Assembly (NCBI RefSeq): GCF_028368995.1
Contig: NZ_JAQNDL010000002.1
Span: 1,920,001-1,984,000, forward strand
Source of the DNA: Nannocystis bainbridge
GTDB lineage: Bacteria > Myxococcota_A > Polyangia > Nannocystales > Nannocystaceae
Direction: 5' to 3'
Length of the DNA: 64,000 bases
The position numbers were made by a program, and so were the translations under genes. Under the pieces are notes generated by a model. It searched no databases. It saw only the letters and a list, made by a program, of their open reading frames with translations, and had not been told where the DNA came from. Below, in pieces: positions 1-63,124 of the stretch (positions are counted from its first letter, which is position 1; each line of letters starts with the position of its first letter).

Positions 1-438
1 TCCGTACAGACATCCTCACTACGGAGCGGGTCCGCGACTCCTTCGGCCCTGCTCTCGACTGTCGGGAGCAGCGAAGTGCCGGCGCAGCAAAGATTCGGCG
101 CAGCGAACAGCCATCGCCGATCGAGCTGCCCCGGCTCGAAGCGACCTCACGGACCTCGCCTGTCCGACTCGTCCGCTCGCGCCCGCCCTCACATGTCCTC
201 AAAGACAGCCGACGAGCGTCGGCGCCCCTCACTCCGGCCGAGCGGCCCGTCGACGCTCCTTCACTCGCCTGAGCCCGCCGTGCGGCCACACGTCCTCGAC
301 CGCTCCACTCACTCGGCGTCCCCGCTCCCCATCGTCGTCGGGCCGTCGGCTGTCGCTAGCCCATCATGTTCGCCCCGACGCGAACCGCCGCTCCTCCCCC
401 GCCTTGCGACCCGGTCCGCGGCCGCCTACGCTCCCGGC

Positions 439-1230
439 ATGCGCTCGCTTAGCTTCGCCTCCGTCCTCGCCGCGCTGCTCGCCTGCACCCCGACCGAGCC
501 CGGCACCACGGACACCGGCACCGCCTCGGGCACCGCCACGAGCACGACCACCGGCACCACGGCCGGCACCACCGCTCCGACCGGCGACCTCACCACCAGC
601 ACCACCGGCGGCACCGCGACCGGCGGCATGACCACCGCGCCGACGACCTCGACCTCCACCACGTCGACGACCTCGACCGCCACCACCGAGCCCGCGACTT
701 CGACGTCGACCACCTCGACCACGAGCCCCGGCACCGCGACCACCGACGACACCGGCGCCGTCGACCCGCAGTGCGCCCCGGCCACCGGTGACTACGGCGA
801 CTGCGAAGCCGTGCTCGGCTTCGCCTTCGACGGCACCGAGTGCACCCTGCGCTCCGGCTGCGGCTGCGGCCCCGACTGCGACAAGTTCTTCCCCAGCGCC
901 TCCGCCTGCGCCCTCGCCTGCGCCGCCGCCGACCACTGCAACCCGGACGAGTTCGACGGCGCCGGCCTCGTCAAACCGCCGATCCAGCCGGGCACCCACT
1001 GCGACGGCGTCTACGTGTGCCCCGGCGCCGACGCCGAGCTCAAGCAGGCCTACGTGGACATCTTCGGCCTGCTGACCTGCGAGCCGGGCGATTTCCCCTG
1101 CAGCGAGAACGGCGAGGTCTGCACCGGCCTGCTCGCGGGCACGCTCGGCCCCGAGGAGTGGGCCAAGCTGTGCGCCGCCAGCCTGCTGCCGAACTCCGGC
1201 CCCTTCATCTGCACCGTCTTCGGCCCCTGA
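439..1230 (+). CDS. Lipoprotein with Thr-rich linker and Cys-rich C-terminus containing a Kunitz/BPTI-like module
   Basis: In-frame ATG at 439 of ORF 76..1230 gives MRSLSFASVLAALLAC (lipobox), then a Thr-rich stalk, then C..GDC...FAFDGTEC...GCGC...FF.S...C...C. Confidence 0.75.
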   Translation: MRSLSFASVLAALLACTPTEPGTTDTGTASGTATSTTTGTTAGTTAPTGDLTTSTTGGTATGGMTTAPTTSTSTTSTTSTATTEPATSTSTTSTTSPGTATTDDTGAVDPQCAPATGDYGDCEAVLGFAFDGTECTLRSGCGCGPDCDKFFPSASACALACAAADHCNPDEFDGAGLVKPPIQPGTHCDGVYVCPGADAELKQAYVDIFGLLTCEPGDFPCSENGEVCTGLLAGTLGPEEWAKLCAASLLPNSGPFICTVFGP

Positions 1231-1241
1231 GCCCGCGAGGG

Positions 1242-1440
1242 CGACCTGTCCCTACGAACAGGTAGACGCTCCGCCGGCGACCTGTCCCTACGAACAGGTA
1301 GCGGGCTCCGCTCCGACCCGTCCCCACGAACAGGTGCCGGATCCGCCCGACGGCCTGTCCTTGCGAACAGGTAGCGGGCTCCGCTCCGACCTGTCCCCAC
1401 GAACCAGCTCCGCCCCGCGACCTGTCCCCACGGACAGGCA
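1242..1440. repeat. Six spaced copies of palindromic CCTGTCC-N4-GAACAGG motif (about 36-bp period)
   Basis: Copies start at 1245, 1281, 1317, 1354, 1390, 1421, with CAGG (once CCAG) 14 bp later; lies between convergent genes. Confidence 0.9.
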
Positions 1441-1471
1441 CCATCCGGCGGCGGGTTCCTGCCCCGCCCCC

Positions 1472-1576
1472 TCACGGCCGGGGCGGCGTGCGCAGCACCT
1501 TGGCGACGAGATAGATCGTCATCCCTCCGACCAGCAGCCACGTGCAGCTCAGCATGATCCACGCGCTCGTGCTCAC
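1472..1576 (-). CDS. Small single-TM protein, putative small subunit of the NSS transporter (MetS-like)
   Basis: GTG at 1576 overlaps the transporter stop (GTGA); MSTSAWIMLSCTWLLVGGMTIYLVAKVLRTPPRP, 34 aa, one hydrophobic helix. Confidence 0.65.
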   Translation of the reverse strand: MSTSAWIMLSCTWLLVGGMTIYLVAKVLRTPPRP

Positions 1577-3324: not shown

Positions 3325-3342
3325 CCTGTCTTCCAGGACAGG
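3325..3342. repeat. Single copy of the 14-bp-spaced palindrome
   Basis: CCTGTCT-TCCA-GGACAGG in the spacer 3' of the ALDH gene. Confidence 0.7.
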
Positions 3343-5077: not shown

Positions 5078-5902
5078 ATGACGACCAGCCGCCGTGACGA
5101 CCTGTTCCGCCGCTACCTCGGGATCCTCGGGTGGGTCGGAGACCCTGGGCTCCACGAGCTCGTCAGCAGCCACCTGATCAAGGTCCCGTTCGAGAACGTG
5201 TCCAAGCTGCTGCGCCCGGCCGACGCGCCGAAGAACGCGGTGCAGCCGATCGACGAGTTCCTGCGCGGCATCGGCGAGCAAGACCTGGGCGGCACCTGCT
5301 ACGCCCTCAACGCCCACTTCGCCGAGCTGCTGCAGTTCCTCGACTACGACGTCGAGCTGCTGGCCGCCGACGCCGGCGGCGTCCCGCGGGCCCACGCCGT
5401 CTGCCGCGTCACCTTCGAGGATCAGCAGCACCTGGTCGACGTCGGCTACGGCGCCCCGTTCTACCACCCGATCCCGCTCGACTCGCTGCCGCTGCAGATC
5501 CCGCACGGCGCCGTCAGCTACGCCCTCGATCGCCACGCCTCGCACCGCGAGGCGGTCGAGGTAGCGATGGTCCACCAGGGCGCCCGGATCCACAACTACG
5601 TCGCCAAGCCGCCGGCCATCGGCTCCGACGTGTTCGCCGCCGCGATCGAGCGCTCCAACGCGCCCGACGCCCACTTCATGCGGCGGCTCAAGATCATCCG
5701 CTTCTTCGCCAGCCGCGTGCTCGAGATCGACAACAACCGGCTCGTCACCACCCACCACAACATCACCACCGTCACCCCGATCCGCGACATCGACGAGCTC
5801 GAGGCGGTCGTGCACGAGGCGCTGCAGCTGCCGCGCATGCCGGTGCGCGAGGCCGTCGAGGCCCTCGCGGCCCGCGGGATCGACGTCTTCGCTACTGCTT
5901 GA
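5078..5902 (+). CDS. Arylamine N-acetyltransferase family protein
   Basis: VPFEN, GGTCYALN (Cys), H, LVDVGYG (Asp) catalytic triad motifs; start at 5063 or 5078. Confidence 0.9.
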   Translation: MTTSRRDDLFRRYLGILGWVGDPGLHELVSSHLIKVPFENVSKLLRPADAPKNAVQPIDEFLRGIGEQDLGGTCYALNAHFAELLQFLDYDVELLAADAGGVPRAHAVCRVTFEDQQHLVDVGYGAPFYHPIPLDSLPLQIPHGAVSYALDRHASHREAVEVAMVHQGARIHNYVAKPPAIGSDVFAAAIERSNAPDAHFMRRLKIIRFFASRVLEIDNNRLVTTHHNITTVTPIRDIDELEAVVHEALQLPRMPVREAVEALAARGIDVFATA

Positions 5903-6752
5903 TCCCGCACAGGCCGACGTCCTCGAGCCCCGGCGGGGCCATGCCCGCGTCGTAGAACGGCAGGCACTCCTGCTCCGGCGCCCCCGAGCACATCGCCGGC
6001 ATCGACTCGGCCAGCGCGAGATCGCAGAACTCGGTGCAGCAGCCCGGCGTCCCGCAGCCCGGCACGTTCGGCCCGGCCGAGCACAACAAGCCCGGGTCGC
6101 ACACGTTGAGGAACTCGCACGGGTCGCCATAGAAGCCGGCGTCGCCGCTGACGTCGCCGTCGCACACGAACCCGCCCGCCGCGCTCGGGATGCAGATCTG
6201 TCCGCTAGGACAGGTCGGCGTCAGCGGGTTGCAGCTCGTCAAGCACAGCGCGAGCAGGCCACCCGTCGACACGTCGCACACCAGCCCGCCCGCGCACGTC
6301 GGCGCGGCCGGCGCCCCCTCGCACATCGGCGTGCAGGTCCCGAGGCCGTCGGCGTCGAGCAGCCAGCACAGCAGACCGGCGTCGCAGTCGTCGAGGCCGA
6401 CGATGCCGCCCTCGGCCTGGCACGGGTCACCCGCCTTGCCCGCGGGATCGGCGATCTCGACGCAGCGCGTGTCGTCGACCACGCCGGTCCCGGTCGAGTC
6501 GAACGGCACGCACTTCGCGCCCGCCGGACAATCTTGCATCCACACGTCGCACTCGCCGGCGATCGGCCCGCCGCTGGTGGTCGGCGCCGACGACGAGGTC
6601 TGCGTGTCGTCCGTCGTCGCCGCGGTCGTCGTCGTCTCGGGACCTGCGGGAGGACCGCCCCCGGCCTCGCTGTCGGTCCCACCTTGCTCGAACTTCACGC
6701 ACCCCGCGAGTGTGAGAAGCACGACGAACCGCGACGCTCCGGGCCTGATCAC
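5892..6752 (-). CDS. Cys-rich myxobacterial lipoprotein
   Basis: LTLAGC lipobox, Thr-rich linker, repeated GDPC/CDAGLLC/CTPMC modules. Confidence 0.8.
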   Translation of the reverse strand: MIRPGASRFVVLLTLAGCVKFEQGGTDSEAGGGPPAGPETTTTAATTDDTQTSSSAPTTSGGPIAGECDVWMQDCPAGAKCVPFDSTGTGVVDDTRCVEIADPAGKAGDPCQAEGGIVGLDDCDAGLLCWLLDADGLGTCTPMCEGAPAAPTCAGGLVCDVSTGGLLALCLTSCNPLTPTCPSGQICIPSAAGGFVCDGDVSGDAGFYGDPCEFLNVCDPGLLCSAGPNVPGCGTPGCCTEFCDLALAESMPAMCSGAPEQECLPFYDAGMAPPGLEDVGLCGIKQ

Positions 6753-8307: not shown

Positions 8308-8339
8308 CCTGGCCTTCGTGACATGTCCCGAAGGCCACC
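8308..8339. repeat. Short 14-bp-phased array / near-perfect palindrome
   Basis: CCTG 8308, CATG 8322, CACC 8336; GGCCTTCGTGACATGTCCCGAAGGCC is almost a perfect palindrome; between convergent genes. Confidence 0.75.
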
Positions 8340-8911: not shown

Positions 8912-8943
8912 CGTGCCCGAAAGGACATGCCCGAAGGGACATC
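8912..8943. repeat. Short 14-bp-phased array
   Basis: CGTG 8912, CATG 8926, CATC 8940 (cgtgcccgaaagga/catgcccgaaggga). Confidence 0.7.
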
Positions 8944-9848: not shown

Positions 9849-10390
9849 CCGATCCGGCGCCACCTCCCGGCCTGACGGCCGGCGACGTCGAGCAGCTGTT
9901 CCTGCAGATGGAGCGCCCGCTCTTCAACGTCGTCTACCGCTGGTTGTGGGACCGCGACGAGTCCGCCGAGCTGGTCCAGGAGACCTTCGCCCGGCTCTGG
10001 CAGGCTCGCGCTCGCGTGCGACCCGACACCGCCGGCGCCTTCGTCTACCGGATCGCCGTCAACCTCGCGGCCAGCCGCCGCCGCTGGCGAGCGCTGCGGC
10101 GCTTCGTCGCCCTCGACGACAGCTCGCCCGACCTCGGCGTCCAGCCCGACCTCGCCATCCTCGGCGCCGAGCGGGCCGCCGCCGTGCGGGCCGCCGTCGA
10201 CGCCTTGCCCGAGAAGCTGCGGCGCGTGCTCGTCCTCTGCGAGCTGTCCGACCTCACCTACGCCGACGTCGCCGCCGCCCTCGAGATCCCCGTCGGCACT
10301 GTCGGCTCGCGCCGCCACGCCGCCGCCGAACAAGTCCGCCGCCACCTCCAGGCCCAGGAGCACCGCCGTGAAGCCACCGTCCGAAGATGA
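9845..10390 (+). CDS. ECF RNA polymerase sigma-70 factor
   Basis: Region 2 ELVQETFARLW...VYRIAVN; region 4 LPEKLRRVLVL...TYADVAAALEIPVGTVGSR. Confidence 0.92.
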   Translation: MTDPAPPPGLTAGDVEQLFLQMERPLFNVVYRWLWDRDESAELVQETFARLWQARARVRPDTAGAFVYRIAVNLAASRRRWRALRRFVALDDSSPDLGVQPDLAILGAERAAAVRAAVDALPEKLRRVLVLCELSDLTYADVAAALEIPVGTVGSRRHAAAEQVRRHLQAQEHRREATVRR

Positions 10391-10775
10391 CCTGAAGGAC
10401 ATGTTCGTCGTCCTCGACCCGCCGCCCGGCGGCCTCGCGCGCCTGCGAGCCCGCCGCGACGCGCCTGTCCGCGCCCGCTGGCCGTGGCTGCTCGCCGGCG
10501 CCGGCCTCGCCACGGCCGCGGCCGTGCTCGCCCTGTCGCTCCGCCCCGTCGAAGTCCCGGCGCCGCTCCCCGCGCCCGTGGCTGCACCGGTCGACCTCAT
10601 CGCCGGCCGCACCGACCTCCACCCCGCGTGGATCGGCCTCGGCCGCGTCGCCCCGCCCACCGAGCCGCTGCAGCTCGCCCCCGAGCTCGGCGGCGCCCTC
10701 GCCTCCCGCCGCGTCGCCCTGCCGCGCCAGGACGTCGTCCTCTACATGCTCGACCCCAAGGGACATGCCCCATGA
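10368..10775 (+). CDS. Putative membrane anti-sigma factor
   Basis: Overlaps the ECF gene 3' end; single TM WPWLLAGAGLATAAAVLALSL. Confidence 0.6.
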   Translation: MKPPSEDDLKDMFVVLDPPPGGLARLRARRDAPVRARWPWLLAGAGLATAAAVLALSLRPVEVPAPLPAPVAAPVDLIAGRTDLHPAWIGLGRVAPPTEPLQLAPELGGALASRRVALPRQDVVLYMLDPKGHAP

Positions 10776-10823
10776 ACCATGTCCGAAACGACATGTCGCA
10801 TTCGACATGTCCCCATGTTCACG
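10764..10823. repeat. 14-bp-phased CATG array
   Basis: CATG at 10764, 10778, 10792, 10806, then CACG 10820; spans the junction of convergent genes. Confidence 0.9.
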
Positions 10824-11670
10824 CGCCCCGCTCGCCTGCGTCCCCGCGCCGGCCGAAGAACAGCAGCAGGTGCAGCAGCATCAGCGCGTGGAACAGCAGC
10901 GACACCCGCATCGATCCGGCGATCCCCGCGTGCAGCAGCACCAGCCCCGCCGCCGCCGCCGGGCGCGTGCGGGCGAACCACAGCCCGAACCCGATCGCCA
11001 GCTCGAGCGCGATCGTCGACCACGCCAGCAACAGCGCCAGCCCGGGCGTCAGCGGCAGCCACGCCGACAGCAGGTGCTGGCCCTGGTGCGCCGAGCGGAA
11101 CACCAGCACCACCGCCTCGCCGGTCCACCAGGATGTCCCTCCGGCCAGCTTCGACAGCGCCGCGAACACGTACACCGCCGACAGCTGCAGCATCATCAAG
11201 CGCGCCGCCCAGCGCGGCCCGCGGGGGCCAGTCGGCGCCGCTGCCACGAACCCCCACTGCAGCGCCGCCAGCTCCGCGTAGGCCCGCGGCGCGCTCGCCT
11301 CGAGCCCCACCAGCAGCGCGAACACGGCCGCCGTCGCCACCCGCGCCGCCCGGCCTCCGCGCCCGGCCGCCACCGTCGCCGCCGCCGCCAGCAGCACCAC
11401 CAGCAGCCCGGTGACAAGCTCCGGCGGCGGCACCCAGCCGCCGAGCACCGCGTCGAGTCGGCCGTCGCGCAGCACCGGCCGGCTGTAAAGCTCCACCCGG
11501 TGCGGCCACTGCGTCAGCGCGTACGCACCTGTCCACAAGGCCAGGCCGCGAGCGAACCGCTGCGTCCGCCCCGTCGCCTCCTCGGCGAAGAAGAACCGCA
11601 ACAGCCGCCCCGGCTCGCGCCGCGGCCGCTCGGGCCCCGCGAACACCGGCAGCTCCGCCGCCTCAGCCAC
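10819..11670 (-). CDS. HTTM domain membrane protein
   Basis: RLMMLQLSAVYVFAALSKL...WWTGEAV...LELAIG...LLHAGI pattern; multiple TMs. Confidence 0.8.
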   Translation of the reverse strand: MAEAAELPVFAGPERPRREPGRLLRFFFAEEATGRTQRFARGLALWTGAYALTQWPHRVELYSRPVLRDGRLDAVLGGWVPPPELVTGLLVVLLAAAATVAAGRGGRAARVATAAVFALLVGLEASAPRAYAELAALQWGFVAAAPTGPRGPRWAARLMMLQLSAVYVFAALSKLAGGTSWWTGEAVVLVFRSAHQGQHLLSAWLPLTPGLALLLAWSTIALELAIGFGLWFARTRPAAAAGLVLLHAGIAGSMRVSLLFHALMLLHLLLFFGRRGDAGERGA

Positions 11671-12112
11671 CGTCCACCTTGTACTGCCCGATCGTCGCCG
11701 CCCCGGTCGACTCGTCCCGCAGGTCGCGCCAGCGCCGGACCAGCCGCACCTTGTCGATCGGCTGCCCGTCGGCGGCCATGCGCGCCGCCAGCCACGTTGC
11801 GAACGTCTGCCGCCCGGCCAGGCGCCCCGGTTCGAACACCGTCGCGCTGTACTCGTACGCCCGCTCGCCCGTCGCCCCGCGCGTGTGCTCGAAGTACTGC
11901 TCGAGCGGGATCGGCACCCACGTCCCGTCGGCCGTGCGCCCCTCCGCCGTCAGCGTGCGCTCGACCGGCGACGGATCGCTGAACATCCGCCACGGCAACG
12001 GCGCCCCCAGCGGCGGCGGCAGCGGCAGCAGCCCGCGCACCAGCGCGAGCGCCTGCACCGCCAGCCACACCGCGACGACCACGACCGCCAGCCTGTGTGG
12101 TTGTTCGGACAT
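11663..12112 (-). CDS. Membrane-anchored partner of the HTTM protein
   Basis: N-terminal TM then PWRMFS motif; overlaps the HTTM gene start by 8 bp. Confidence 0.65.
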   Translation of the reverse strand: MSEQPHRLAVVVVAVWLAVQALALVRGLLPLPPPLGAPLPWRMFSDPSPVERTLTAEGRTADGTWVPIPLEQYFEHTRGATGERAYEYSATVFEPGRLAGRQTFATWLAARMAADGQPIDKVRLVRRWRDLRDESTGAATIGQYKVDGG

Positions 12113-12141
12113 GTCCCGAAATTCATGCCCCTACGGGCAGG
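12110..12141. repeat. Short 14-bp-phased array overlapping a start codon
   Basis: CATG 12110 (start codon of 11663..12112), CATG 12124, CAGG 12138. Confidence 0.75.
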
Positions 12142-12150
12142 TCAGGCCGC

Positions 12151-13086: not shown

Positions 13087-13202
13087 CGGGCGCGGCTACC
13101 ATACGCCGTTTTACGCGGTTCGGGCACCGCGCCGGGTCACGCCGTGACCGGGCGGGCGGGCTTTTCTCCGCCCGCGCGGCCTGCTATGCCGCGCCCCGGC
13201 GC

Positions 13203-14075: not shown

Positions 14076-14087
14076 TACGGTGCAGGC

Positions 14088-14678
14088 ATGGACGTCGCCC
14101 CCTGTGCGTTCTGCGAACTCCCGCACACAAGTGACAACCTCCGCCGCGACTACGAGCTCGACTTCTGCGAACGCTGCGCCGAAGGCCACGCCGAGGTCGC
14201 GCTGCGCGAGCGAGGCCACACCATCGTGTCGCGCGAGTGGCAGACGCGCGAGCGCGTCGGCAGCGACTTCTACACCTTCTATCACTACTCGATCACCGCA
14301 CGCCCGCGCGTCAGCCTGTCGTTCCGCGCCAGCTTCGCCCGCGAGAGCACCCTCGATCGCATGATCAAGGTGTTCCGCCGCGACCTCACCGTGGGCGACC
14401 CGCTGTTCGACGACTTCATCTACATCAGCACGCGCGACCGGGCCCAGGTCACCCTGATGCTCGACAGCACCGGCACCCAGGCGACCTTGATGGACCTCGT
14501 CAGCCGCTTCAGCAGCGTGTTCTTCGACGGCGGCGCCTTCGAGGTCCGCGAGCGCGGCACCGAGTCGATCAGCCCCGACCTCCCCGCCATGCTGTCGGTA
14601 GCCGCCATGCTCGTCCACCTCGAGCGCGCCGCCGAGGCCGCCGCCGCCCCGCCGACCGCGACGCCCGCTGAGACCTGA
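14088..14678 (+). CDS. Hypothetical protein with N-terminal CxxC...CxxC
   Basis: CAFC...CERC; GC3-rich frame directly after rlmJ. Confidence 0.7.
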   Translation: MDVAPCAFCELPHTSDNLRRDYELDFCERCAEGHAEVALRERGHTIVSREWQTRERVGSDFYTFYHYSITARPRVSLSFRASFARESTLDRMIKVFRRDLTVGDPLFDDFIYISTRDRAQVTLMLDSTGTQATLMDLVSRFSSVFFDGGAFEVRERGTESISPDLPAMLSVAAMLVHLERAAEAAAAPPTATPAET

Positions 14679-14831
14679 GCCTGCCGGCATGTCGCCCGGG
14701 ACATGTCCTCGGGCCCATGTACGAACGCGCATGTCCGCAAGGACATGCCCGAACGCGCATGTTCTCCAGGACATGCACGAACGAGCATGTCCGCGAGGAC
14801 ATGCTCGTTCCGTCAGGCCCCTCGAGGCAGG
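14674..14831. repeat. Longest 14-bp-phased CATG array (12 nodes)
   Basis: CCTG 14674; CATG 14688, 14702, 14716, 14730, 14744, 14758, 14772, 14786, 14800; CAGG 14814, 14828; fills the gap between convergent genes. Confidence 0.95.
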
Positions 14832-14832
14832 C

Positions 14833-17202: not shown

Positions 17203-18648
<1,446 letters not shown>

Positions 18649-20385: not shown

Positions 20386-20410
20386 CGCACCGCCGGACCG
20401 CCGCGCGTGG

Positions 20411-20471
20411 CATGTCCCGAAAGACATGTCACTGCGCGCGCGGTCTGGTCTGACCTGTCCTTTCGCGCATG
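20411..20471. repeat. Two 14-bp-spaced motif pairs
   Basis: CATG 20411/20425 and CCTG 20454/CATG 20468; between convergent genes. Confidence 0.8.
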
Positions 20472-20520
20472 TCTCCTCGCGCTCCTGCGAGCGCGACGCG
20501 CGGGGGCTGAGCGGCGCGCT

Positions 20521-27371: not shown

Positions 27372-27567
27372 GCTGACTGCAGGGACATGTCCCGCGGGCC
27401 ATGTCTCCTGCGCCACGGCTCATCCCCGGCTCGCAGCGCCGCCCTCGACGCGGGCAGCCGGGGTAGCGCTACGCTGACGCCTGCCCACCAGGACATGCCA
27501 CAAAGGACATGTCCATGACGACATGTCCTCGAGCGCATGCCCACAAGCGCATGCCGCAAAGGACATG
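27372..27567. repeat. 14-bp-phased CATG arrays (two blocks)
   Basis: Block 1: GCTG 27372, CATG 27386, 27400, CACG 27414. Block 2: CCTG 27480, CATG 27494, 27508, 27522, 27536, 27550, 27564. Between convergent genes. Confidence 0.93.
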
Positions 27568-27677
27568 TCCTCATCTTTGCCAGCGCCCGCCCCCGCGCAG
27601 CACGCCCCCGCGTGCCCCGCGTCAGTGTTCGGCCTGGTCGCGCTGACCCGGCTGCCGCTGGCGCCCCGTGCCCCGCG

Positions 27678-31825: not shown

Positions 31826-31836
31826 ACACGCCGGGA

Positions 31837-31910
31837 CATGTCCTTACGGGCATGTCCGACAGGGCATGCCCCTGAGGACATGCCCGTTCGAGCATGTCCT
31901 CCAGGACACC
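31837..31910. repeat. 14-bp-phased CATG array
   Basis: CATG 31837, 31851, 31865, 31879, 31893, CACC 31907; starts 12 bp after the stop; convergent genes. Confidence 0.93.
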
Positions 31911-33975: not shown

Positions 33976-33988
33976 GCCCGCGCACGTC

Positions 33989-34062
33989 CATGGTCTTCGG
34001 ACCATGCCCTTTGAGACATGTTTATAAAAACATGCGCAACAGGACATGCTCGTTCAGACATG
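33989..34062. repeat. 14-bp-phased CATG array
   Basis: CATG 33989, 34003, 34017, 34031, 34045, 34059; convergent genes; contains AT-rich unit catgtttataaaaa. Confidence 0.93.
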
Positions 34063-34170
34063 TCCTCCGGAGCTCCTCTCCCGCAGGGGATCATCACGCC
34101 GAAGCCAGGCACCAGTCCGTTTCGCCGTGTCCACGTCGACGCTTCGGCGCGGCGCCCCGCACAGGACCTT

Positions 34171-35493: not shown

Positions 35494-35678
35494 GGCCTCA
35501 CTCCGTCGCCGCGCGCACGCGGGGTCTGTCGGGCTCGTCGGGTCGCTGCATCGCGGTCGGCGGATTGTACTCGCCGGGCCTGCGGCTGTCGCCGCGGCGC
35601 TCCCGCAGCCGCGTGCAGCCACGGGCTGGCGCCTGTTGCGCCGGATCATCCGAGCCGCGCCCGTGCGCCGTCCCGAGA

Positions 35679-35738
35679 CATGTCCCCGCAGACATGCCCT
35701 TACGGACATGCCCCCGAGGACATGCCCCCGAGGACCTG
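35679..35738. repeat. 14-bp-phased CATG array
   Basis: CATG 35679, 35693, 35707, 35721, CCTG 35735; two identical units catgcccccgagga; just 3' of the vWA gene. Confidence 0.92.
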
Positions 35739-35757
35739 TCCTTTCAGCCCAATCGCA

Positions 35758-37145: not shown

Positions 37146-39455
37146 GTGCTGCTCTTCGCCCTCACCATCTTTCTCAGCGCATTCCTCCTGTTCCAGGTCC
37201 AGCCTCTGATCGGCAAGATCATCCTGCCCTGGTTCGGCGGCACGCCTGCGGTGTGGACCACGTGCATGCTGTTCTTTCAGGTGCTGCTGCTGGCCGGTTA
37301 TGCGTACGCGCACGCCGTGATCGCCCTGCCTGCGCGGCGCCAGGGCCTCGTGCACCTGGCCGTGCTGGTCGCGGCGGTCCTTGCCGGCGCGCCGACCATC
37401 TTCCCGCCCGAAGGTTACAAGCCCGAAGGAGACGGCGTCCCGCTGCTGCAGATCTTGCTCGTGCTGACGGTGAGCGTCGGTCTGCCGTACTTCGCCCTGT
37501 CGACCACCGGCTCGCTGGTCCAGGCGTGGTTCTCGCGGCTGCACCCGTCGCGCTCGCCCTACCCGCTCTACGCCCTGTCGAACATCGGCTCGCTGCTCGG
37601 CCTCCTGACCTTCCCGTTCCTCGTCGAGCCGCGGCTCGGCTCGGTCACCCAGGCCTCGCTGTGGTTCTTCGGCTTCGTCGGCTTCTGCGTGCTGTGCGGC
37701 GTGATCGCGGTCCAGACCACCCGCGCCGGCGCGGCCGAGCCCGCGGCCGCGCGCGAGGCCGATGTCGCCGTGCCCGCGCCGACCTGGGGTCTGCGGGCCG
37801 TGTGGGTCGCGCTCGGGGCCTGCGCCTCGATCATGCTGCTGGCGATGACCAACCAGATGGCGATCGACGTCGCCAGCGTCCCGTTCCTGTGGGTCATCCC
37901 GCTCGCGCTCTACCTGCTGAGCTTCATCCTCTGCTTCTCGTCCGAGCGCTGGTACCCGCGGGTGCTGTTCTACCCGCTGTTCGTCGGGGCCACCGCGGGT
38001 GTCGTCGGCCTCATGCTGGCCGGGGCCGACGCCGGCATCGAACAGCAGGCCCTGGTCTACTGCGCCGCGATCTTCATCTACGCCATGGTCTGCCACGGCG
38101 AGCTGTACCGTCTGCGCCCGCACCCGCGTCACCTCACCGCCTTTTACCTGGCGCTCTCGGTCGGCGGCGCGCTCGGCGGGGTGTTCGTCGGCGCGATCGC
38201 CCCGCTGGTGTTCTCCGCCTATTACGAGCTGCACATCGGCCTCGTCGCCACCTCGCTGCTGGTCCTGCACGCGTTCCGCCGCGACCAGCGGCTGGGGCTG
38301 CGCGGCCGCCCGGTCGCCGCCATCGTGCTCGTCGGCGCCGCCGCCGTCGCCTACGCCCTGTGGCGGGTCCGGACCGACAGCCCCGACTCGTTCCGCTACA
38401 TCGGCCCGCTCGCCGGCGCCCTGCTGTGCATGCTGCTGTTCGGGTTCCTGTGGAGCCTGCGCGTTCGCACAGGTCTTTCCGACCCTGTCCCTCAGGACAG
38501 CCCGGCCGGCCCGCGCTGGATCGACGACGGCGCCCGCATCAACCACGGCCGGGCCCGCCTGGCCTGGCTGCTGCCGCTCGCCGCCATCGTCCTGCTCGCC
38601 GTCAACCTCGGCATCGAGGCCCGCTACCGCACCAGCGAGGCGTTGACGATCGAGCGCGGCTTCTTCGGCGTGCTGCGGGTCGCCGATCGCTACACCCACG
38701 ATCCGCTGCTGGCCCGGCGGATCCTGTTCCACGGCGCCATCAACCACGGCTTCCAGTTCCGCGACCGCGAGCGCCAGATGTGGCACAACTCGTACTTCGC
38801 CGAGGAGAGCGGGATCGGCACCGCGCTGACGCGCCACCCCAAGCGCAAGCGCGGCGAGCCGCTCAAGATCGGCCTCCTCGGCCTCGGCTCCGGCACCCTG
38901 CTGACCTACGGCCGCCCGGGCGACACCATCCGGATCTACGAGATCGATCCCGAGGTCGAGCCGCTCAGCCGCGAGTACTTCACCTACTTCGAGCGCACCG
39001 AGGCAAAAGCCGAGGTCGTGCTCGGCGACGGCCGCCTCTCGCTCGAGCGCGAGCCCGATCAGGCCTACGACGTCCTGATCCTCGACGCCTTCAGCAGCGA
39101 CGCCATCCCGATGCACCTGCTGACCCGTGAGGCGTTCGTGACGTACTTCCGCCACCTCGCGCCCGACGGCGTCCTCGCCGCCAACATGAGCAACCGCCAC
39201 GTCGACATCCGCCCGGTGCTCAAGCAGCTGGCCCAGCATTTCGCGTGGGAGTTCGTGTGGATCGAGAACCACAGCGACGAACCCCGCGGCGTCTATGCGG
39301 CCGACTGGGGCCTGCTCACCCGCGACCAGGCGTTCCTCGCCGACCCGCTGGTCGAGATGCGCAAGGGCGACACCAGCGGCGTCTCGACCGACCTCCGCAT
39401 GTGGACCGACGATTACAGCAACCTGTTCGCGGTCCTCAAGTGGTTCCACGGTTAG
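37146..39455 (+). CDS. Fused membrane domain/spermidine-synthase-like methyltransferase
   Basis: FLSAFLLFQVQP...PWFGG, YALSNIGSL, CHGEL, LGLGSGT, YEIDP, DAFSSDAIPMHL, WTDDYSN. Confidence 0.9.
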   Translation: MLLFALTIFLSAFLLFQVQPLIGKIILPWFGGTPAVWTTCMLFFQVLLLAGYAYAHAVIALPARRQGLVHLAVLVAAVLAGAPTIFPPEGYKPEGDGVPLLQILLVLTVSVGLPYFALSTTGSLVQAWFSRLHPSRSPYPLYALSNIGSLLGLLTFPFLVEPRLGSVTQASLWFFGFVGFCVLCGVIAVQTTRAGAAEPAAAREADVAVPAPTWGLRAVWVALGACASIMLLAMTNQMAIDVASVPFLWVIPLALYLLSFILCFSSERWYPRVLFYPLFVGATAGVVGLMLAGADAGIEQQALVYCAAIFIYAMVCHGELYRLRPHPRHLTAFYLALSVGGALGGVFVGAIAPLVFSAYYELHIGLVATSLLVLHAFRRDQRLGLRGRPVAAIVLVGAAAVAYALWRVRTDSPDSFRYIGPLAGALLCMLLFGFLWSLRVRTGLSDPVPQDSPAGPRWIDDGARINHGRARLAWLLPLAAIVLLAVNLGIEARYRTSEALTIERGFFGVLRVADRYTHDPLLARRILFHGAINHGFQFRDRERQMWHNSYFAEESGIGTALTRHPKRKRGEPLKIGLLGLGSGTLLTYGRPGDTIRIYEIDPEVEPLSREYFTYFERTEAKAEVVLGDGRLSLEREPDQAYDVLILDAFSSDAIPMHLLTREAFVTYFRHLAPDGVLAANMSNRHVDIRPVLKQLAQHFAWEFVWIENHSDEPRGVYAADWGLLTRDQAFLADPLVEMRKGDTSGVSTDLRMWTDDYSNLFAVLKWFHG

Positions 39456-40852: not shown

Positions 40853-40953
40853 CCTGTCCATTCGGGCATGCCCGCGCGGACATGCCCTTTCGGACATGGT
40901 CTTGAAAACCTGTCCCTTCGAGCATCCTTCGACCATCTGTCCCTTCGGCCATC
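40853..40953. repeat. 14-bp-phased CATG/CCTG array
   Basis: CCTG 40853, CATG 40867, 40881, 40895, CCTG 40909, CATC 40923, then TCTG 40936/CATC 40950. Confidence 0.88.
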
Positions 40954-56090: not shown

Positions 56091-56136
56091 GCTGTCCCTC
56101 GGGACATGTGATTCGCGACATGTCCCTCTAGACATG
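56091..56136. repeat. 14-bp-phased CATG array
   Basis: GCTG 56091, CATG 56105, 56119, 56133; starts 6 bp after the stop. Confidence 0.88.
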
Positions 56137-56306
56137 TCTGATCCGTCGCGTTCACCTCGCGGCCGCGAAAGACGACCGCGATCGAAGCGCGGCAGAGCCA
56201 ATCGAGGCGCCCTCGCTGCGACAGGCGATTTCATGGGTCTCGATGGGAATCGTCGGCGGCACAGCCCTCTTGTCGCGCCGGTGACCGCGACGTAAAAGCA
56301 GGTCGC

Positions 56307-57857: not shown

Positions 57858-57873
57858 TTCGCGGAGCGATTCA

Positions 57874-57970
57874 CATGTCTAATGGGACATGCTCTGAGAG
57901 ACATATTTCATTCGACATGTCCATCAGACCATTCGTGACATCGAACCGACGGCATGTCCCTCGAGACAGA
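57874..57970. repeat. 14-bp-phased CATG array
   Basis: CATG 57874, 57888, CATA 57902, CATG 57916, CATT 57930; CATG 57953/CAGA 57967; convergent genes. Confidence 0.88.
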
Positions 57971-58079: not shown

Positions 58080-59177
58080 TCACGCCCGCCGGCGCCGGCG
58101 CAGCCCCAGCAGCCCGAACAGCGCCAGCCATCCCGCTCCGCCCGTGCCGTCGCTGGCGCACGCGCAGCCCTTCTCGGGCCCGTCTTCACCGCCGGTCGCG
58201 CTGTCCGTCGCATCCGACCCGCCCGTCTCGCTCCCGGCCTCGCCCGTCATCGGCGCCTCGCCGGTCGTCGGCGCCTCGCCGGTCTCGCTCTCTTCGCCCG
58301 TCGTCTCGACCGCCGCCGCGCAGGCGCTGCCCGGGACCGCGTCCGCGTCGCTCCACACCGGCTCGTCCGGCGGCCCCGAACCATCGGGCTGCGGCGCCTC
58401 GTCGGTGCGCACGAAACACGGCGGGCACAGCTCGAACGGCGCCGCCGCGTTGCCGGCCGCGTCGATGGCCACGACCTCGAGGCACACATCGGTGCGCACG
58501 TCGGCCCCGCCGAGTCGGTCGACCGCCAGCGTGATCGGCACGACCGTCGTCGACGAAGGCCCCCGCGCGGTGCGGTGCAGCCCGTGCCCCTCGAACTCGC
58601 CGCCTGGGTCCCACTCCATCACGAACAGGGGCAGCGCCTCGCCGGCCGTCGGCGCCGGTTGCTCGAGGTGCACGTAAAGCGTCTGCTCGATCTCGAATTG
58701 GTCGCAGCCCGACGTCATCGTGTACTGCGCGTGCTCGAACACCGCAAAGAACGACTTCTCGACGTCCGGCGACGGCGCCGTCACGTCACGCGCGCCCGCG
58801 ATGAAGCTGATCGACGCCGGGCAGTTCTCGCCCTCGCCACAGAACTCGCCCGCCACCACCACCGTCTGGCCCGGCTGCGGCTCGGGCTCGACCTTCGCCG
58901 CCAGCGGGGCCAGGCCCGCCGCGAGCGGGGCGTCGACCAGCGCCGCCGGCTCGCCGTCGACCGTCACCGTCACCTTGTCGAGCGTGATGCCGTCGCCCCA
59001 GAACAGCAGCGCCGCGTTGGCCGGATACGTGTCGCCGTCGGCCGGCACGCTCTCGTGGAGCTCCGGCAGCGTCGCCCCGCACGCGTCGGCCAGGCGGGGC
59101 AGCGCAAACAAAAGGGCGCACGTGCTGGCCAGCACGGCGCCCCCCGCGAGTCGGGACCAGGCGTAAGTCGTTCGCAT
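58080..59177 (-). CDS. Surface protein with Ig-like N-terminus and MYXO-CTERM-like tail
   Basis: Signal ...RLADAC; ESVPADGDTYPANA; acidic linker; KGCAC + TM + RRRRA. Confidence 0.8.
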   Translation of the reverse strand: MRTTYAWSRLAGGAVLASTCALLFALPRLADACGATLPELHESVPADGDTYPANAALLFWGDGITLDKVTVTVDGEPAALVDAPLAAGLAPLAAKVEPEPQPGQTVVVAGEFCGEGENCPASISFIAGARDVTAPSPDVEKSFFAVFEHAQYTMTSGCDQFEIEQTLYVHLEQPAPTAGEALPLFVMEWDPGGEFEGHGLHRTARGPSSTTVVPITLAVDRLGGADVRTDVCLEVVAIDAAGNAAAPFELCPPCFVRTDEAPQPDGSGPPDEPVWSDADAVPGSACAAAVETTGEESETGEAPTTGEAPMTGEAGSETGGSDATDSATGGEDGPEKGCACASDGTGGAGWLALFGLLGLRRRRRA

Positions 59178-59362
59178 GGCTGCCCCGCATCCACCATCCG
59201 TGCCGCGCGAACTCGCCTGCGATCTCGAAGACTTCCCATCGTCCGCGGCGCTGGATCCATGGCGTCGCTGTCGGGCCCCGACTTCCGCGCCGCGCGCTGG
59301 TGCCGCGATCCTCGTCCCTTCGCGTCGTCGCCACGATCCAGATCGCCGAGCCTCGCCGATGA

Positions 59363-59519
59363 CCTGTCCTCTCGGACATCTCGATTCATTGTCCCAAAGA
59401 ACATGTCCCTCGAGACATCCATGACCCGGGCTCGGCGCCGCGGCGCCTCGACGACCCATGGACTTCCAAAGCCTCACCCCACCCCGCCGAGATCCGCGGC
59501 ACCTGTCCTCGAGGACATC
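59363..59519. repeat. 14-bp-spaced motif copies
   Basis: CCTG 59363/CATC 59377; ATTG 59388/CATG 59402/CATC 59416; CCTG 59502/CATC 59516. Confidence 0.8.
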
Positions 59520-61862: not shown

Positions 61863-61864
61863 TC

Positions 61865-61948
61865 GCCCGCCACGCAGCGACGCTCATGGACTTCGCCGAG
61901 CATCCGGCCCGCCACGCAGCGACGCTCATGGACTTCGCCGAGCACCCG
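61865..61948. repeat. 42-bp tandem duplication
   Basis: GCCCGCCACGCAGCGACGCTCATGGACTTCGCCGAGCA(T/C)CCG at 61865 and 61907. Confidence 0.9.
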
Positions 61949-62081
61949 GCGCCGTCCTCCTGATCGCTCGCTCCGCGGTGCTCACTGCTTCCGCCGAGCA
62001 CCCGCTTGCTCGCCCGCTGCGCTGCGACGCTCACGGGCTCCGCGTCGAGCGCTCGACTCGCTCGCCCGCGCTGCGTGAAGC

Positions 62082-62411
62082 TCACTGGCTCTGCGGCGGG
62101 CAGCCGTCGCCGTCGGCCCGCCCGTCGCGGACCTCGGGCACGTCGGGGCACTTGTCGAAGCGGTCGGAGATCCCGTCGCCGTCGCGGTCGACCACCGGGC
62201 AGCCGTCGCGCGGCCCGCCGGCCTGATCAGGGCAGGCATCGACCGCGTCGGGCACACGATCGCCGTCCCGATCGCTCGGCGTCGTGACCGGCTTCGGGCG
62301 CGACACCGGCCCGCTCGTAGCATCGAGCGACACCGGCGGCGCCTGCGTGGCGCCGGACTGGGCGCATCCGAACAGCAGGACGGGCAACAGGAGACTGGCA
62401 GCGCGAGCCAT
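62082..62411 (-). CDS. Small lipoprotein with thrombospondin type-3-like Ca-binding repeats
   Basis: LLFGC lipobox; DRDGDRVPDAVDACP, DRDGDGISDRFDKCP, DGCP. Confidence 0.75.
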   Translation of the reverse strand: MARAASLLLPVLLFGCAQSGATQAPPVSLDATSGPVSRPKPVTTPSDRDGDRVPDAVDACPDQAGGPRDGCPVVDRDGDGISDRFDKCPDVPEVRDGRADGDGCPPQSQ

Positions 62412-62517
62412 GCAGTGCCCAGGGTACCACTCCGCCCGCGAGCACGCGAGCACGGCCGCCCAGCGGCCCCGAGGCGCGAACGACGGCCCGCGATGCCCGG
62501 AACAGCCCCACGGGATC

Positions 62518-62880
62518 GCAAGCGAGGCCATCCGTCCCGAAATGCCCGCATCGACTCGCAGCGCACATGCCCGCGCGCGAGGGCCGGCCCGAGGTGCCAG
62601 CAACAGTCGCGTCGAAGCCCAGCTCGCACAGGTCGCAAGCACGGCCATCCGTCCAGAGACCCCCGCATCGACCCGCGGCGCACGCATGCCCGCGCGCGAG
62701 GGTCGGCCGATGGGCCAGCAACGGCCGCATCGCTCGCACTGCTCGCCCAGGACCGCAAGCACGGCCATCCGTCCAGAGCTGCCCGCACGACCCACGGCGT
62801 ACGCATGCACAGGCGGGTCGGCCCGACGTGTCGACAACGGCCGGCCTCGAGTGCGAGCAACGGCGACGCAAGCATCCCCC
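62518..62880. repeat. Degenerate approx. 115-120-bp tandem repeat (3 copies)
   Basis: GCAAGC(A/G)(C/A)GGCCATCCGTCC starts at 62518, 62635, 62755; shared CATGCCCGCGCGCGAGGG and CAAC segments. Confidence 0.8.
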
Positions 62881-63050
62881 GCGAGCGAGGGTCACCTCGC
62901 CCGCGATCGCTCGCTGCGACTCCCGACCTTTATCCCGGACCCCTGGTCTCTCGGCGCCCGCCGCGGCCCCGCACATGCGACGGCAGCAACATCGCCACAG
63001 GACCGGGCCTCTCGAAGGCCGACAGCGGAGTTCCGCTCTTCCCGAAAGAA

Positions 63051-63124
63051 CATGTCCTTTTAACCATGTCCTTTTCGACATGCTCATTTCACCATGCCCT
63101 CGACGACATGCTCTTCACGACATG
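63051..63124. repeat. 14-bp-phased CATG array
   Basis: CATG 63051, 63065, 63079, 63093, 63107, 63121; just 3' of the ankyrin gene. Confidence 0.93.

Follow-up and report, generated by a model that had tools for sequence, protein, structure and literature searches.

Arrays of a 14-bp inverted repeat past stop codons in Nannocystis, a candidate family of miniature hairpin repeats

Described repeat systems and the Nannocystis arrays

REP-type repeats have been a puzzle for many years. They gather in large numbers at gene ends, and a known transposase can be linked to only a part of them. BIMEs are made of palindromic units that alternate in orientation and are separated by defined linker motifs. 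The REP/REPIN elements and BIMEs of Proteobacteria, including REPIN-RAYT systems, are the closest known systems to the repeats analysed here (PMC3116915, PMC3337134, PMC5581495, bioRxiv 10.1101/2022.05.22.493013). Neisserial dRS3 is a 20-bp unit with 6-bp terminal inverted repeats (ATTCCC-N8-GGGAAT) that flanks RS elements of 50-150 bp, and it is the integration site of a filamentous phage recombinase (PMC1797815).

We analysed a window of 64,000 nt (the whole stretch of DNA presented above) and the 11-Mb genome to which it belongs. The building block of the arrays found there is a 14-bp palindromic unit, TGYCC-N4-GGRCA, in which inverted arms of 5 bp each enclose 4 nt of free sequence; the genome contains 2828 copies of it. 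Like REP, REPIN and BIME elements, these repeats are short imperfect palindromes with hundreds to thousands of copies; they are extragenic and clustered past gene 3' ends and between convergent genes, are grouped in arrays, are inherited vertically within the lineage, and could form stem-loops on either strand. In contrast to REPIN-RAYT systems, six genomes with these repeats yielded no RAYT. With a free centre and only 10 of the 14 positions fixed, the unit has no family consensus of 20-35 bp as in REP, and a 'master' consensus through stem and loop was not found, only the arms and core being specified. In contrast to BIMEs, the units abut or overlap at CA/TG in an invariant 14-bp phase with no linker motifs, and in contrast to REP, several hundred copies lie in open reading frames. 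The likeness to dRS3 and NIMEs consists of conserved short inverted arms around a free centre, hundreds of copies, intergenic arrays whose repeat number varies between strains, and a regular G+C wave along the arrays, whereas the Nannocystis units abut directly without RS elements, the sequences are unrelated, and the units have neither a match in viral contigs nor a known recombinase partner.

Other systems resemble the arrays in single respects. An intrinsic terminator is a G+C-rich hairpin followed by a U-rich tract, with bidirectional forms serving both strands; the arrays likewise have a G+C-rich predicted hairpin a few to a few tens of nucleotides past the stop, and this hairpin, being symmetrical, could be shared by two convergent genes, but the arrays have no T/U tract, share one sequence family and form multi-unit arrays. 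Rickettsia palindromic elements, of about 100-150 bp and conserved sequence, are found translated in frame within genes, as is the Nannocystis repeat in one worked example, although its unit is only 14 bp with a free centre. MITEs have terminal inverted repeats and a target-site duplication and depend on a DDE transposase, whereas isolated Nannocystis units lack target-site duplication; iteron or centromere-like arrays occur once or a few times per replicon adjoining the gene for their binding protein, whereas 954 Nannocystis arrays are spread across all contigs. Rfam at gathering thresholds gave no match in the whole window. The literature searched on REP elements, palindromes, RAYT or intergenic repeats in myxobacteria or Nannocystis, to which subscription journals did not belong, held no such repeat, in keeping with an earlier note, which did not recognise this as a described element. 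Among the matches listed for the string GGACATGTCC, only p53 or unrelated eukaryotic work appeared.

Units, arrays and their position relative to genes

The earlier note described an 18-bp palindrome whose CATG nodes recur every 14 bp. The repeats and their phase are real: the window contains 41 occurrences of CATG-N10-CATG, whereas 100 dinucleotide-preserving shuffles gave 0.58 +/- 0.78 and never more than 3, and CATG-CATG distances of 14, 28, 42 and 56 bp were counted 41, 29, 21 and 13 times, against 1 and 2 for 13 and 15 bp. The sharp peaks predicted at 14, 28 and 42 bp were seen in the genome-wide histogram (3736, 2073 and 1586, with 751 at 56 bp) above a background of about 70-130 that rises to about 250-320 where the distance is a multiple of 3; off-phase distances of 13, 15 and 16 bp gave 72, 262 and 79. 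The part of the description that did not hold is the node as conserved entity, which is instead the inverted repeat. All the multi-node arrays listed in that note were found in place with node numbers as given or nearly so (Table 1), whereas its shorter copies, although present, are single or decayed units at 192, 3325, 8308, 8914/8928, 52656 and 59365, and pairs at 12110 and 20411. A further 2-node pair lies at 27386.

Table 1. Repeat elements and a unit-like match in the window (nodes are CATG joints between units; first-node positions in brackets).
Coordinates	Strand	Element	Remarks
192..208		Single decayed unit, CATGTCC-N4-AGACAG	
3325..3342		Isolated hairpin of CCTG...CAGG type, CCTGTCT-N4-GGACAGG	Kept in 6/6 species, with loop changes
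6199..6212	-	Unit-like match inside ORF 5892-6752	Encodes Cys-Pro-x-Gly-Gln
8308..8339		Decayed array of 2-3 units	In convergent gap
8914..8941		Two adjoining units	
10761..10812		Array, 4 CATG nodes (10764)	Fills gap of convergent genes 10368-10775 (+) and 10819-11670 (-)
12107..12143		2 nodes and terminal GGGCAGG arm (12110)	
14685..14806		Largest array of the window, 9 nodes (14688)	Partly a 28-bp tandem duplication
20408..20431		2-node element (20411)	23 nt past stop at 20385
27383..27406		2-node element (27386)	12 nt past stop at 27371
27491..27570		Array, 6 nodes (27494)	Convergent gap also holding 27383..27406
31834..31908		Array, 5 nodes and terminal GGACA arm (31837)	9 nt past stop at 31825
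33986..34065		Array, 6 nodes, AT-rich spacers (33989)	
35676..35741		Array, 4 CATG nodes, then GGACCTGTCC variant node (35679)	Unit number varies among species
38465..38501	+	2.5-node array	Translated in frame inside ORF 37146-39455
40853..40901		Array, CCTGTCC terminal arm first, 3 nodes (40867)	7 nt past stop at 40846
52656		Single or decayed unit	
56091..56139		Array, degenerate left terminal arm, 3 nodes (56105)	Directly past stop at 56085
57871..57922		Array, 3 CATG nodes (57874) and one decayed node (CATA)	
59365..59378		Single unit near called 5' end of ORF 58080-59477 (-)	Second unit 59504-59517
63048..63127		Array, 6 nodes (63051)	Ends about 30 nt before stop of gene 63159-63989 (-)

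The 4-nt length of the centre sets the unit apart: with other loop lengths the TGYCC and GGRCA arms matched 91 (N2), 93 (N3), 54 (N5), 28 (N6) and 23 (N7) times genome-wide, and swapped or direct arrangements of the arms gave 38-138 matches. In the arrays, units follow one another head to tail, so that CA at the end of one adjoins TG at the start of the next; these joints give rise to the 14-bp series of CATG and to what look like 10-bp palindromic GGACATGTCC nodes. The genome contains 954 arrays with at least 3 nodes (19-70 per full 500-kb bin) and about 1750 isolated single units, the latter in the context (C)C-unit-G(G), which gives a 7-10-bp stem with a 4-nt loop. At the 1908 array ends examined, TG is retained on the left (CCTG 164, GCTG 82, GATG 43) and CA on the right (CAGG 104, CAGC 97, CATC 81), so that left ends keep ..TG(Y)CC and right ends GG(R)CA.., the inward-facing arm only. 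Correspondingly, CCTGYCC at 14 bp from a CATG node precedes it 331 times and follows it 142 times, while GGRCAGG follows it 290 times and precedes it 108 times. Because the ends keep only the inward arm, the unit is the hairpin-capable inverted repeat and the nodes are mere joints. The central 4 positions are nearly free, the commonest spacer accounting for 86 of 2733, and spacer GC per position is about 0.41-0.57 against 0.71-0.72 for intergenic DNA, which bears out the freely varying, AT-richer spacers noted earlier. Among 286 skipped, decayed nodes the transitions CGTG (3) and CACG (5) are rare and CCTG (53) and CAGG (43) frequent, a spectrum that differs from a plain mutational one.

Pairing in the units was examined by counting. 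In CxTG...CAyG units (n=1257) the outermost stem pair was C..G 133 times against 62 expected, while A..G and C..T occurred 125 and 139 times against 202 and 214 expected; this covariation could come partly from array geometry or from two subfamilies. In isolated units the counts for C..G, A..G, C..T and the remaining outer pairs were 116, 96, 93 and 360. The flanks of the 1750 isolated units are complementary beyond the arms, with Watson-Crick excess at pair 1 (959 vs 784), pair 5 (630 vs 555) and pair 6 (579 vs 475), and odds ratios for pairing, computed from pair counts, are 1.3-1.8 at the three inner stem positions. Apart from the outermost pair, stem covariation is weak (mutual information about 0.01), with C.A and T.G combinations common. 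Reverse complementarity between spacers two units apart was seen 33 times (9.1 expected), and all eight array RNAs tested had predicted folds of -22 to -84 kcal/mol with z scores between -3.1 and -7.1. In one species, six CCTGTCC/CCTATCC units at 14 bp are direct repeats, for which mutual pairing is impossible.

The arrays sit right after stop codons, mainly between convergent genes, as the earlier note had observed in the window, and hardly ever between divergent genes. They start 0-20 nt past stop codons, the first decayed unit often containing the stop codon itself, and a flank could be called for 862 arrays, of which 804 face the 3' end of a gene; arrays in tandem gaps lie a median of 20 nt from the stop and 205 nt from the next start. 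A divergent arrangement was found for 2 of the 954 arrays against 239 of 3875 control gaps. By gene calls, which are crude, 430 arrays were convergent, 279 tandem, 37 divergent and 208 'genic', with 1490 convergent, 3810 tandem and 1284 divergent gaps available, and the density per kb was 1.71, 0.75 and 0.27 in convergent, tandem and divergent gaps and about 0.12 in gene cores. In the window, the 14685..14806 array lies between convergent genes, with a stop at 14678 and a gene at 14833-15630 on the minus strand.

Copies within reading frames rest on one worked example (38465..38501) and on crude ORF statistics, by which 489 units are in an open, in-phase coding context and 944 fall within a core-gene mask, against 17-64 for control loop lengths. 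The array of the worked example belongs to a 24-residue stretch that is missing from the orthologue of a more distant clade. A codon-phase artefact was rejected as the source of these units, as the 7-nt loop, which leaves the arms in equal codon phase, has only the 23 matches given above.

Conservation, turnover and searches for partners

In 4 gaps compared in up to 5 species, identity to the window sequence was 0.74 in the arms, 0.82 in the core flanks, 0.44 in the spacers and 0.37 in other intergenic DNA. Exact units were retained in place between species in 4 of 31 cells, a rarity which means that any selection would act at the level of the array and not of the single unit. The element at 12107..12143 is kept in 5/5 other species compared with changed loops, its second node being lost in one; both nodes of 27383..27406 are orthologous in 6/6 species, and its deviant node GG(C/T)CATG is common to 5/6, with C in four and T in one; the orthologous nodes of 40853..40901 alternate between CATG and CCTG among species. 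Orthologous gaps differ in unit number between species, neighbouring spacers have the same sequence in 75 of 1670 cases (18.3 expected), and across 26555-27508 a contig from a near-identical strain is shorter by exactly 14 bases. Arrays thus gain, lose and duplicate whole 14- or 28-bp units.

The arrays are present in the core clade of a genus whose named relatives are Nannocystis, with 38-48 CATG pairs at 14 bp per 100 kb in each of five other core species. A 200-kb sample of a distant clade contained 21 units and only 1 such pair, so this clade has the single hairpin without arrays, and a sample of another genus contained 0 units and 0 pairs. No such arrays were found in 30 genomes from other genera of the family and class or in 400 other Myxococcota genomes.

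Marks of known mobility and termination systems were also sought. Y1_Tnp (PF01797) gave no RAYT match in the genome of the window or in five other array-bearing genomes, while control genomes scored, which extends to whole genomes the earlier remark that the window has no RAYT. There was no excess of 2-6-nt direct repeats at eight candidate boundaries of the 1750 isolated units, and viral contigs had 0 matches to a three-node pattern. Past the last node of 279 oriented arrays the T fraction at positions 25-49 was 0.09-0.16, giving no T/U tract, and canonical hairpin-plus-T terminators were not enriched (2 vs 4.0 expected in 20 kb). A search for RNA runs covering 26000-35999 of the window yielded none, the matching sequences being metagenome DNA contigs.

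Explanations of the arrays

Our leading reading, to which we give a probability of roughly 0.5, is that the arrays are a previously undescribed, lineage-specific family of REP/BIME-like miniature palindromic hairpin repeats at transcript 3' ends. The unit would act as a single-stranded stem-loop, in the 3' end of a transcript from either strand or in single-stranded DNA; by analogy with REP and BIME elements it may serve as a bidirectional 3'-end hairpin in termination or exonuclease protection, and it would have spread by a copy mechanism without RAYT and without target duplication. The constant loop length of 4 nt points to recognition of the hairpin by some protein or enzyme. Several findings speak against this reading: a terminator would make no sense for the several hundred units in reading frames, no T-run follows the arrays, stem covariation is weak apart from the outermost pair, the direct-repeat units of one species could not pair with each other, exact units are rarely retained in place, and hairpin energetics alone can hardly account for the lack of any excess at 13- and 15-bp spacing. 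It is a speculative and rather improbable extension that a non-RAYT enzyme recognises the 5-bp-stem/4-nt-loop hairpin in single-stranded DNA, cuts exactly at CA/TG and adds units beside existing ones, and/or that the fixed 14-bp register at gene ends is read by a protein confined to the clade; if true, this self-targeting, self-concatenating micro-element would be a new mode of repeat propagation. As a hairpin repeat, the Nannocystis family is an unusually clean case, with a minimal 10-base unit, an invariant register and no RAYT, and its history is readable from living genomes, with single hairpins in the distant clade and concatenated arrays in the core clade. These features make it a tractable system for how such repeats arise and whether they end or protect transcripts in bacteria of very high G+C content without canonical terminators. 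The arrays are also relevant to the annotation and assembly of Nannocystis genomes and to the engineering of Nannocystis natural-product gene clusters, in which they may mark the ends of transcription units.

The same absolute register, with no excess at 13 or 15 bp, fits a duplex-DNA platform on which one protein dimer would bind per 14 bp in a filament turning about 120 degrees per site; at gene ends such a filament might block transcription as a roadblock or organise the nucleoid. The near independence of positions, as in a weight matrix, the depletion of the doubly weakened node GCATGC (217 vs about 279 expected), the conserved arms with free, AT-richer spacers, and the direct-repeat array that one species keeps despite its lack of hairpin potential fit this proposal. 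We nevertheless consider it unlikely, and with it the earlier suggestion that a protein reads nodes like GGACATGTCC in double-stranded DNA, since array ends retain inward arms only and the node is not the unit. Complementary flanks and the outer stem pair are not required by a duplex reading, the isolated and in-ORF copies are unsuited to a cooperative filament, anti-correlation within nodes is explained by replication-strand bias, and no candidate protein came up, though not by a systematic search. The in-ORF copies, including the one in the stretch missing from the distant orthologue, fit a selfish element, mobile or self-amplifying but non-autonomous and without a host function, which inserts or duplicates beside existing copies and survives where harm is small, past stop codons and within protein linkers that tolerate it. 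Its restriction to the clade, at a similar density in each of the five other core species, fits an expansion in a common ancestor, the fall in density from convergent through tandem and divergent gaps to gene cores is the expectation under purifying selection, and unit duplication and the 14-bp indel polymorphism are in line with it. This account is doubtful because no Y1/RAYT was found in six genomes, no target-site duplication at any boundary tried and no match in viral contigs; furthermore, orthologous nodes predate the species and are conserved better than the DNA around them, and as the spacers are almost all different, the copies are not recent replicas of a master.

The CATG core is a classic methylase and restriction site, and the earlier note had raised a methylation-linked iterated palindrome. 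In a palindrome of the HIP1 type, a CATG methylase and short-patch repair bias would pull near-matches to the consensus. The spectrum of decayed nodes, which differs from a plain mutational one, speaks for such a drive, which we regard as very improbable. Within the class searched, D12, the sole methylase is found in 22/24 genomes of the family, including genera without arrays, and this distribution independent of the arrays removed the only candidate; Vsr is absent. Unlike a HIP1-type palindrome, the arrays are not tracked by a D12 methylase or Vsr, and repair drive leaves the 14-bp phase, the 3'-end placement and the inverted-repeat unit unexplained.

Two further candidates were set aside. 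A test for G.U pairs on the sense strand as RNA evidence gave more T.G than C.A in tandem arrays, yet the counts were 596:1035 in negative-skew and 383:195 in positive-skew regions (background ratios 0.87/1.21). In all classes of array this bias goes with the replication strand, and the T.G excess was therefore not used as evidence for RNA. At 6199..6212, the encoded motif is present in 3/4 paralogues from other genomes, and this unit-like match is therefore probably a coincidence of a shared protein motif rather than a copy of the repeat.

The repeat unit and its 14-bp phase

The window spans G000:C3:1920001–1984000. CATG-N10-CATG occurred 41 times in the window, against 0.58 ± 0.78 expected and a maximum of 3 in 100 dinucleotide-preserving shuffles. 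Distances between CATG sites in the window peaked at 14 bp (41), 28 bp (29), 42 bp (21) and 56 bp (13), with 1 and 2 pairs at the off-phase distances of 13 and 15 bp. The earlier note had described phased CATG palindromes and predicted genome-wide peaks at 14, 28 and 42 bp. All the loci that it listed were present, the 14-bp excess over matched shuffles held, and the peaks were seen across the whole assembly (G000; 11.05 Mb, 71–72% G+C, five contigs, C1–C5), where counts were 3736 (14 bp), 2073 (28 bp), 1586 (42 bp) and 751 (56 bp), compared with a background of ~70–130 (~250–320 at multiples of three) and off-phase counts of 72 (13 bp), 262 (15 bp) and 79 (16 bp). Chaining of CATG-centred nodes gave 2074 chains, 954 of which had at least three nodes at 14-bp steps and are called arrays. 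Chains of 2, 3, 4, 5, 6 and 7 nodes numbered 1120, 347, 276, 210, 91 and 24, and the longest had 8, 9, 10, 12 and 16 nodes, with one or two of each. Arrays were found on every contig, at 19–70 per full 500-kb bin.

The logo of 3973 nodes read G(.71) G(.70) A/G(.59/.30) CATG T/C(.55/.34) C(.76) C(.75). Four near-free positions followed the node arms, with a G+C content of ~0.41–0.57 versus 0.71–0.72 elsewhere in intergenic DNA, as had been claimed for free, AT-richer spacers. At 1908 array ends, the core was read one 14-bp step outside the array: left ends retained TG (CCTG 164, GCTG 82, GATG 43, GGTG 33) and right ends retained CA (CAGG 104, CAGC 97, CATC 81, CACC 48). CCTGYCC stood 14 bp before a CATG node 331 times and after one 142 times; GGRCAGG stood after a node 290 times and before one 108 times. 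Since array ends retain the inward-facing arm only, the unit boundary falls between CA and TG, and the node is a joint; the building block is the 14-bp unit TGYCC-N4-GGRCA. When units are joined head to tail, CATG arises at each palindromic joint and recurs every 14 bp.

The unit had 2828 copies in the genome, compared with 91, 93, 54, 28 and 23 copies of identical arms around loops of 2, 3, 5, 6 and 7 nt, and with 38–138 copies when the arms were direct or swapped. No adjacent arm was present in 1750 of the 2828. Isolated units lay in the context R-C-(A/C) ... (T/G)-G-Y, which lengthens the stem, and perfect CCTGYCC-N4-GGRCAGG was found in 133 copies.

Coordinates of individual features (window positions unless a contig is named)
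Position	Strand	Feature	Remark
5892–6752	−	Cys-rich, secreted-looking protein, no Pfam match	Many invariant cysteines; very large paralogous family, five related genomes having 11–61 matches each
6199		Unit-like match encoding Cys-Pro-x-Gly-Gln	Motif also in 3/4 aligned paralogues from other genomes; probably a coincidence
14688–14806		Nine CATG at 14-bp steps	Sequence inspected
26555–27508		Span of a metagenome contig ~99% identical to the window	Exactly 14 bases missing
27349–27703		Span of a second metagenome contig	15 gap letters
33501–33975	+	Uncalled by the crude gene caller; resembles the 3' part of a + gene	TGA just before the 33986 array; if a + gene, this array also lies between convergent genes
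37146–39455	+	ORF, 769 residues, weak spermidine-synthase-like C-terminal domain	24 extra core-clade residues sit in a linker, compared with the orthologue in G009 (distant clade)
38465–38501		2.5-node array translated inside ORF 37146–39455	Same length in six species; start of the 24-residue stretch missing from the G009 orthologue
40847–41386		Gap whose orthologue in G001 (core clade) has six direct CCTGTCC/CCTATCC units	14-bp steps, 28-bp super-period; right arms and hairpin potential lost, phase retained
61863–62000		~42-nt direct duplication (...gcccgccacgcagcgacgctCATGgacttcgccgagca... twice)	Start of the long 61863–63158 gap; unrelated to the 14-bp family
C1:3591256–3592347	−	Locus L090, single D12-class N6-adenine DNA methyltransferase of G000	Open frame of 679 codons
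C3:1085839–1085947		Eight near-identical GGTCATGYCCCTGA units	Seem to derive from one unit by recent slippage
C3:1237912–1238188		16-node array	AT-rich, diverged and old, in contrast to the GGTCATGYCCCTGA expansion
C3, near 1.45 Mb (~1,450,000)		Peak of cumulative GC skew, outside the window	May be replication origin or terminus; other contigs monotonic

Placement at gene 3' ends and inside reading frames

Genes were called with a crude caller based on codon-position G+C (7641 ORFs, 82–84% of the genome). By these calls, 430 of the 954 arrays were convergent, 279 tandem, 37 divergent and 208 'genic', the totals of convergent, tandem and divergent gaps being 1490, 3810 and 1284. A second classification, independent of gene models, took the strand from G+C periodicity in the 300 nt on either side of each array and gave 298 (+,−), 195 (+,none), 169 (none,−), 92 (none,none), 74 (+,+), 68 (−,−), 28 (−,none), 28 (none,+) and 2 (−,+). 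According to these counts, a gene 3' end points into 804 of the 862 arrays having a callable flank, and the divergent arrangement was found in 2 of 954 arrays, compared with 239 of 3875 control gaps. The placement proposed earlier, past stop codons and between convergent genes, is thus borne out. In the 279 tandem gaps, arrays started a median of 20 nt past the upstream stop, the median distance from their end to the next called start was 205 nt, and no T-run followed them. The stop codon often lay within the first decayed unit (cCTGAcC) or 1–3 nt ahead of a CCTGYCC arm, and stop-to-array distances (n = 1139) peaked at 6 nt (53), 11–12 nt (88) and −8 nt (21). Strict units were present in 480 of 1383 convergent, 491 of 3190 tandem and 96 of 1221 divergent gaps. 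Canonical hairpin-plus-T terminators were not enriched in window 10000–29999 (2 versus 4.0 ± 2.0 expected).

Coding-like periodicity on both flanks, in the same strand and phase, was detected for 549 of the 2828 units, and in 489 of these the frame was open from −240 to +270 nt. A core-gene mask made by trimming the two ends of each called gene, which covered 71% of the genome, contained 944 units, versus 64, 55, 38 and 17 for control loop lengths. Codon phase was rejected as the cause, because a 7-nt loop keeps the same arm phase yet is rare genome-wide (23). The in-ORF class is real in number, with counts that rest on crude gene calls, and it is mixed in nature, since the two worked cases, at 38465 and 6199, differ.

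Clade distribution, age and whole-unit turnover

The strict three-node pattern occurred 49 times in G000 and in eight of ten other genomes of the GTDB genus (9, 0, 17, 0, 30, 1, 20, 2, 2 and 12), and in none of 30 genomes of the family and class that belong to other genera; as a control, the reversed pattern gave 0 in every genome scanned. G000 had 869 occurrences of four CATG at 14-bp steps. Of the 400 other Myxococcota genomes scanned, 15 had 1–5 and the remaining 385 had none; the listed cases were ordinary perfect tandem repeats and were rejected as the same arrays. By identity of a marker protein, the D12-class methylase, to that of G000, the genus forms two clades: a core clade (G001, G003, G005, G007 and G010; 93–96%) with many arrays, and a distant clade (G002, G006, G008 and G009; 66–70%) with 0–2 strict matches. 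Three Nannocystis species supplied the best named relatives (87–91% identity) of the protein adjoining the 14688 array. In 200-kb samples, G000 had 52 units and 66 CATG pairs at 14 bp, G009 had 21 units and 1 pair, and G019, from another genus, had 0 of both. Among 6-bp inverted repeats around 4-nt loops, CTGTCC (13 times) was the most frequent in the G009 sample. Because G009 has units nearly without 14-bp pairs, comparison of these sequences indicates that the single hairpin came first and that the core clade is where units became concatenated into arrays.

Synteny with five core-clade genomes extended across the window; arrays lay in the same gaps, and per 100 kb all five had 38–48 CATG pairs spaced by 14 bp. 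All six genomes had the first two nodes of the gap that follows 27371 in place; the second was a deviant GG(C/T)CATG in five of them (C in four, T in one), and the spacer was different in every genome. These nodes, including the shared deviant, therefore predate the species. Unit number varied between species at 14688, 27491, 35676 and 40853, and orthologous nodes alternated between CATG and CCTG. Four gaps were aligned by MAFFT with up to five other species, a small sample in which alignment favours the arms; identity to the window was 0.88 in coding ends, 0.82 in CA/TG flanks, 0.74 in arms, 0.44 in spacers and 0.37 in other intergenic DNA, and only 4 of 31 cells had a strict unit in place. 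Neighbouring spacers were identical in 75 of 1670 cases (18.3 ± 4.0 expected), with 44 of 869 at lag 2 (9.6 expected) and 19 of 396 at lag 3 (4.0 expected). Together with the 14-base deletion in a metagenome contig and the species differences in unit number, these spacer duplicates demonstrate that arrays change by whole units. No single-base changes of spacing were seen.

Proposed hairpin pairing, candidate partners and related repeats

Among CxTG...CAyG units (n = 1257), the complementary outer pair C..G was found 133 times (62 expected), and the non-complementary A..G and C..T were found 125 and 139 times (202 and 214 expected). Units without evident neighbours had A..T 360, C..G 116, A..G 96 and C..T 93 times, and flanks of isolated units were complementary above expectation at three of six positions. 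Spacers two units apart were reverse complements 33 times (9.1 expected), the three inner variable stem pairs had pairing odds ratios of 1.3–1.8 (computed from position counts), and RNA folding gave z scores of −3.1 to −7.1 for all eight array strands tested. The outer-pair and flank complementarity, reverse-complement spacers, inner-pair odds ratios and fold scores count for single-strand pairing. On the other hand, mutual information at the inner stem pairs was only ~0.01, mismatched stem combinations were common and no loop length besides 4 nt was tolerated, all of which count against a purely structural reading, as do the six direct units of G001, which cannot pair mutually. Our main reading, with a probability of about 0.5, is a REP-like hairpin element that has a role at 3' ends: it would act as a stem-loop at the 3' ends of transcripts, and something would recognise its fixed hairpin geometry. 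The idea preferred in the earlier note, that arrays are a platform for a protein binding duplex DNA, does not call for such pairing and seems unlikely; a selfish element without function is similarly doubtful.

The REP-associated tyrosine transposase RAYT (Y1_Tnp, PF01797) had 0 matches in G000 and in the other five genomes of the core clade (one a single contig), whereas control genomes scored; its reported absence from the window thus extends to six genomes. The scan of related Myxococcota recovered the array family in the core clade and no co-occurring partner among those sought. Of 24 genomes in the family, 22 had relatives of the D12-class methylase, as had nine of ten in the genus, an occurrence that does not track arrays, and Vsr was not found. 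The methylase was rejected as a partner, the suggested link to methylation failed for this candidate, and a drive by methylation or repair is very improbable. No target duplication was found at unit boundaries, no array pattern in viral contigs and no match in Rfam.

The family is like REP/BIME elements in how many copies it has, in being palindromic, in forming arrays and in lying at 3' ends, but it has no RAYT and no conserved loop or linker. With neisserial dRS3 in NIME arrays (PMC1797815), it shares a free centre between short conserved arms, strain-variable arrays and a G+C wave; unlike them, it has no RS elements. A U-tract and target duplication, defining features of compared families, are also missing, and the Nannocystis family fails the defining tests of each. 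Searches of the literature outside subscription journals found no published description of the repeat, in agreement with the earlier impression of an undescribed element. We file it as a REP-like hairpin repeat of unusual self-abutting 14-bp architecture.

At variable R/Y stem positions, T.G versus C.A was 383:195 on the G-rich strand and 596:1035 on the C-rich strand, a difference that exceeds the bias of composition in the background (0.87/1.21). Either a mutation bias tied to the replication strand or pairing on the template of the lagging strand could account for it, and it was left uncounted as evidence. The excess tracked the sign of GC skew in every array class, with contigs C1, C2 and C5 against C3 and C4.
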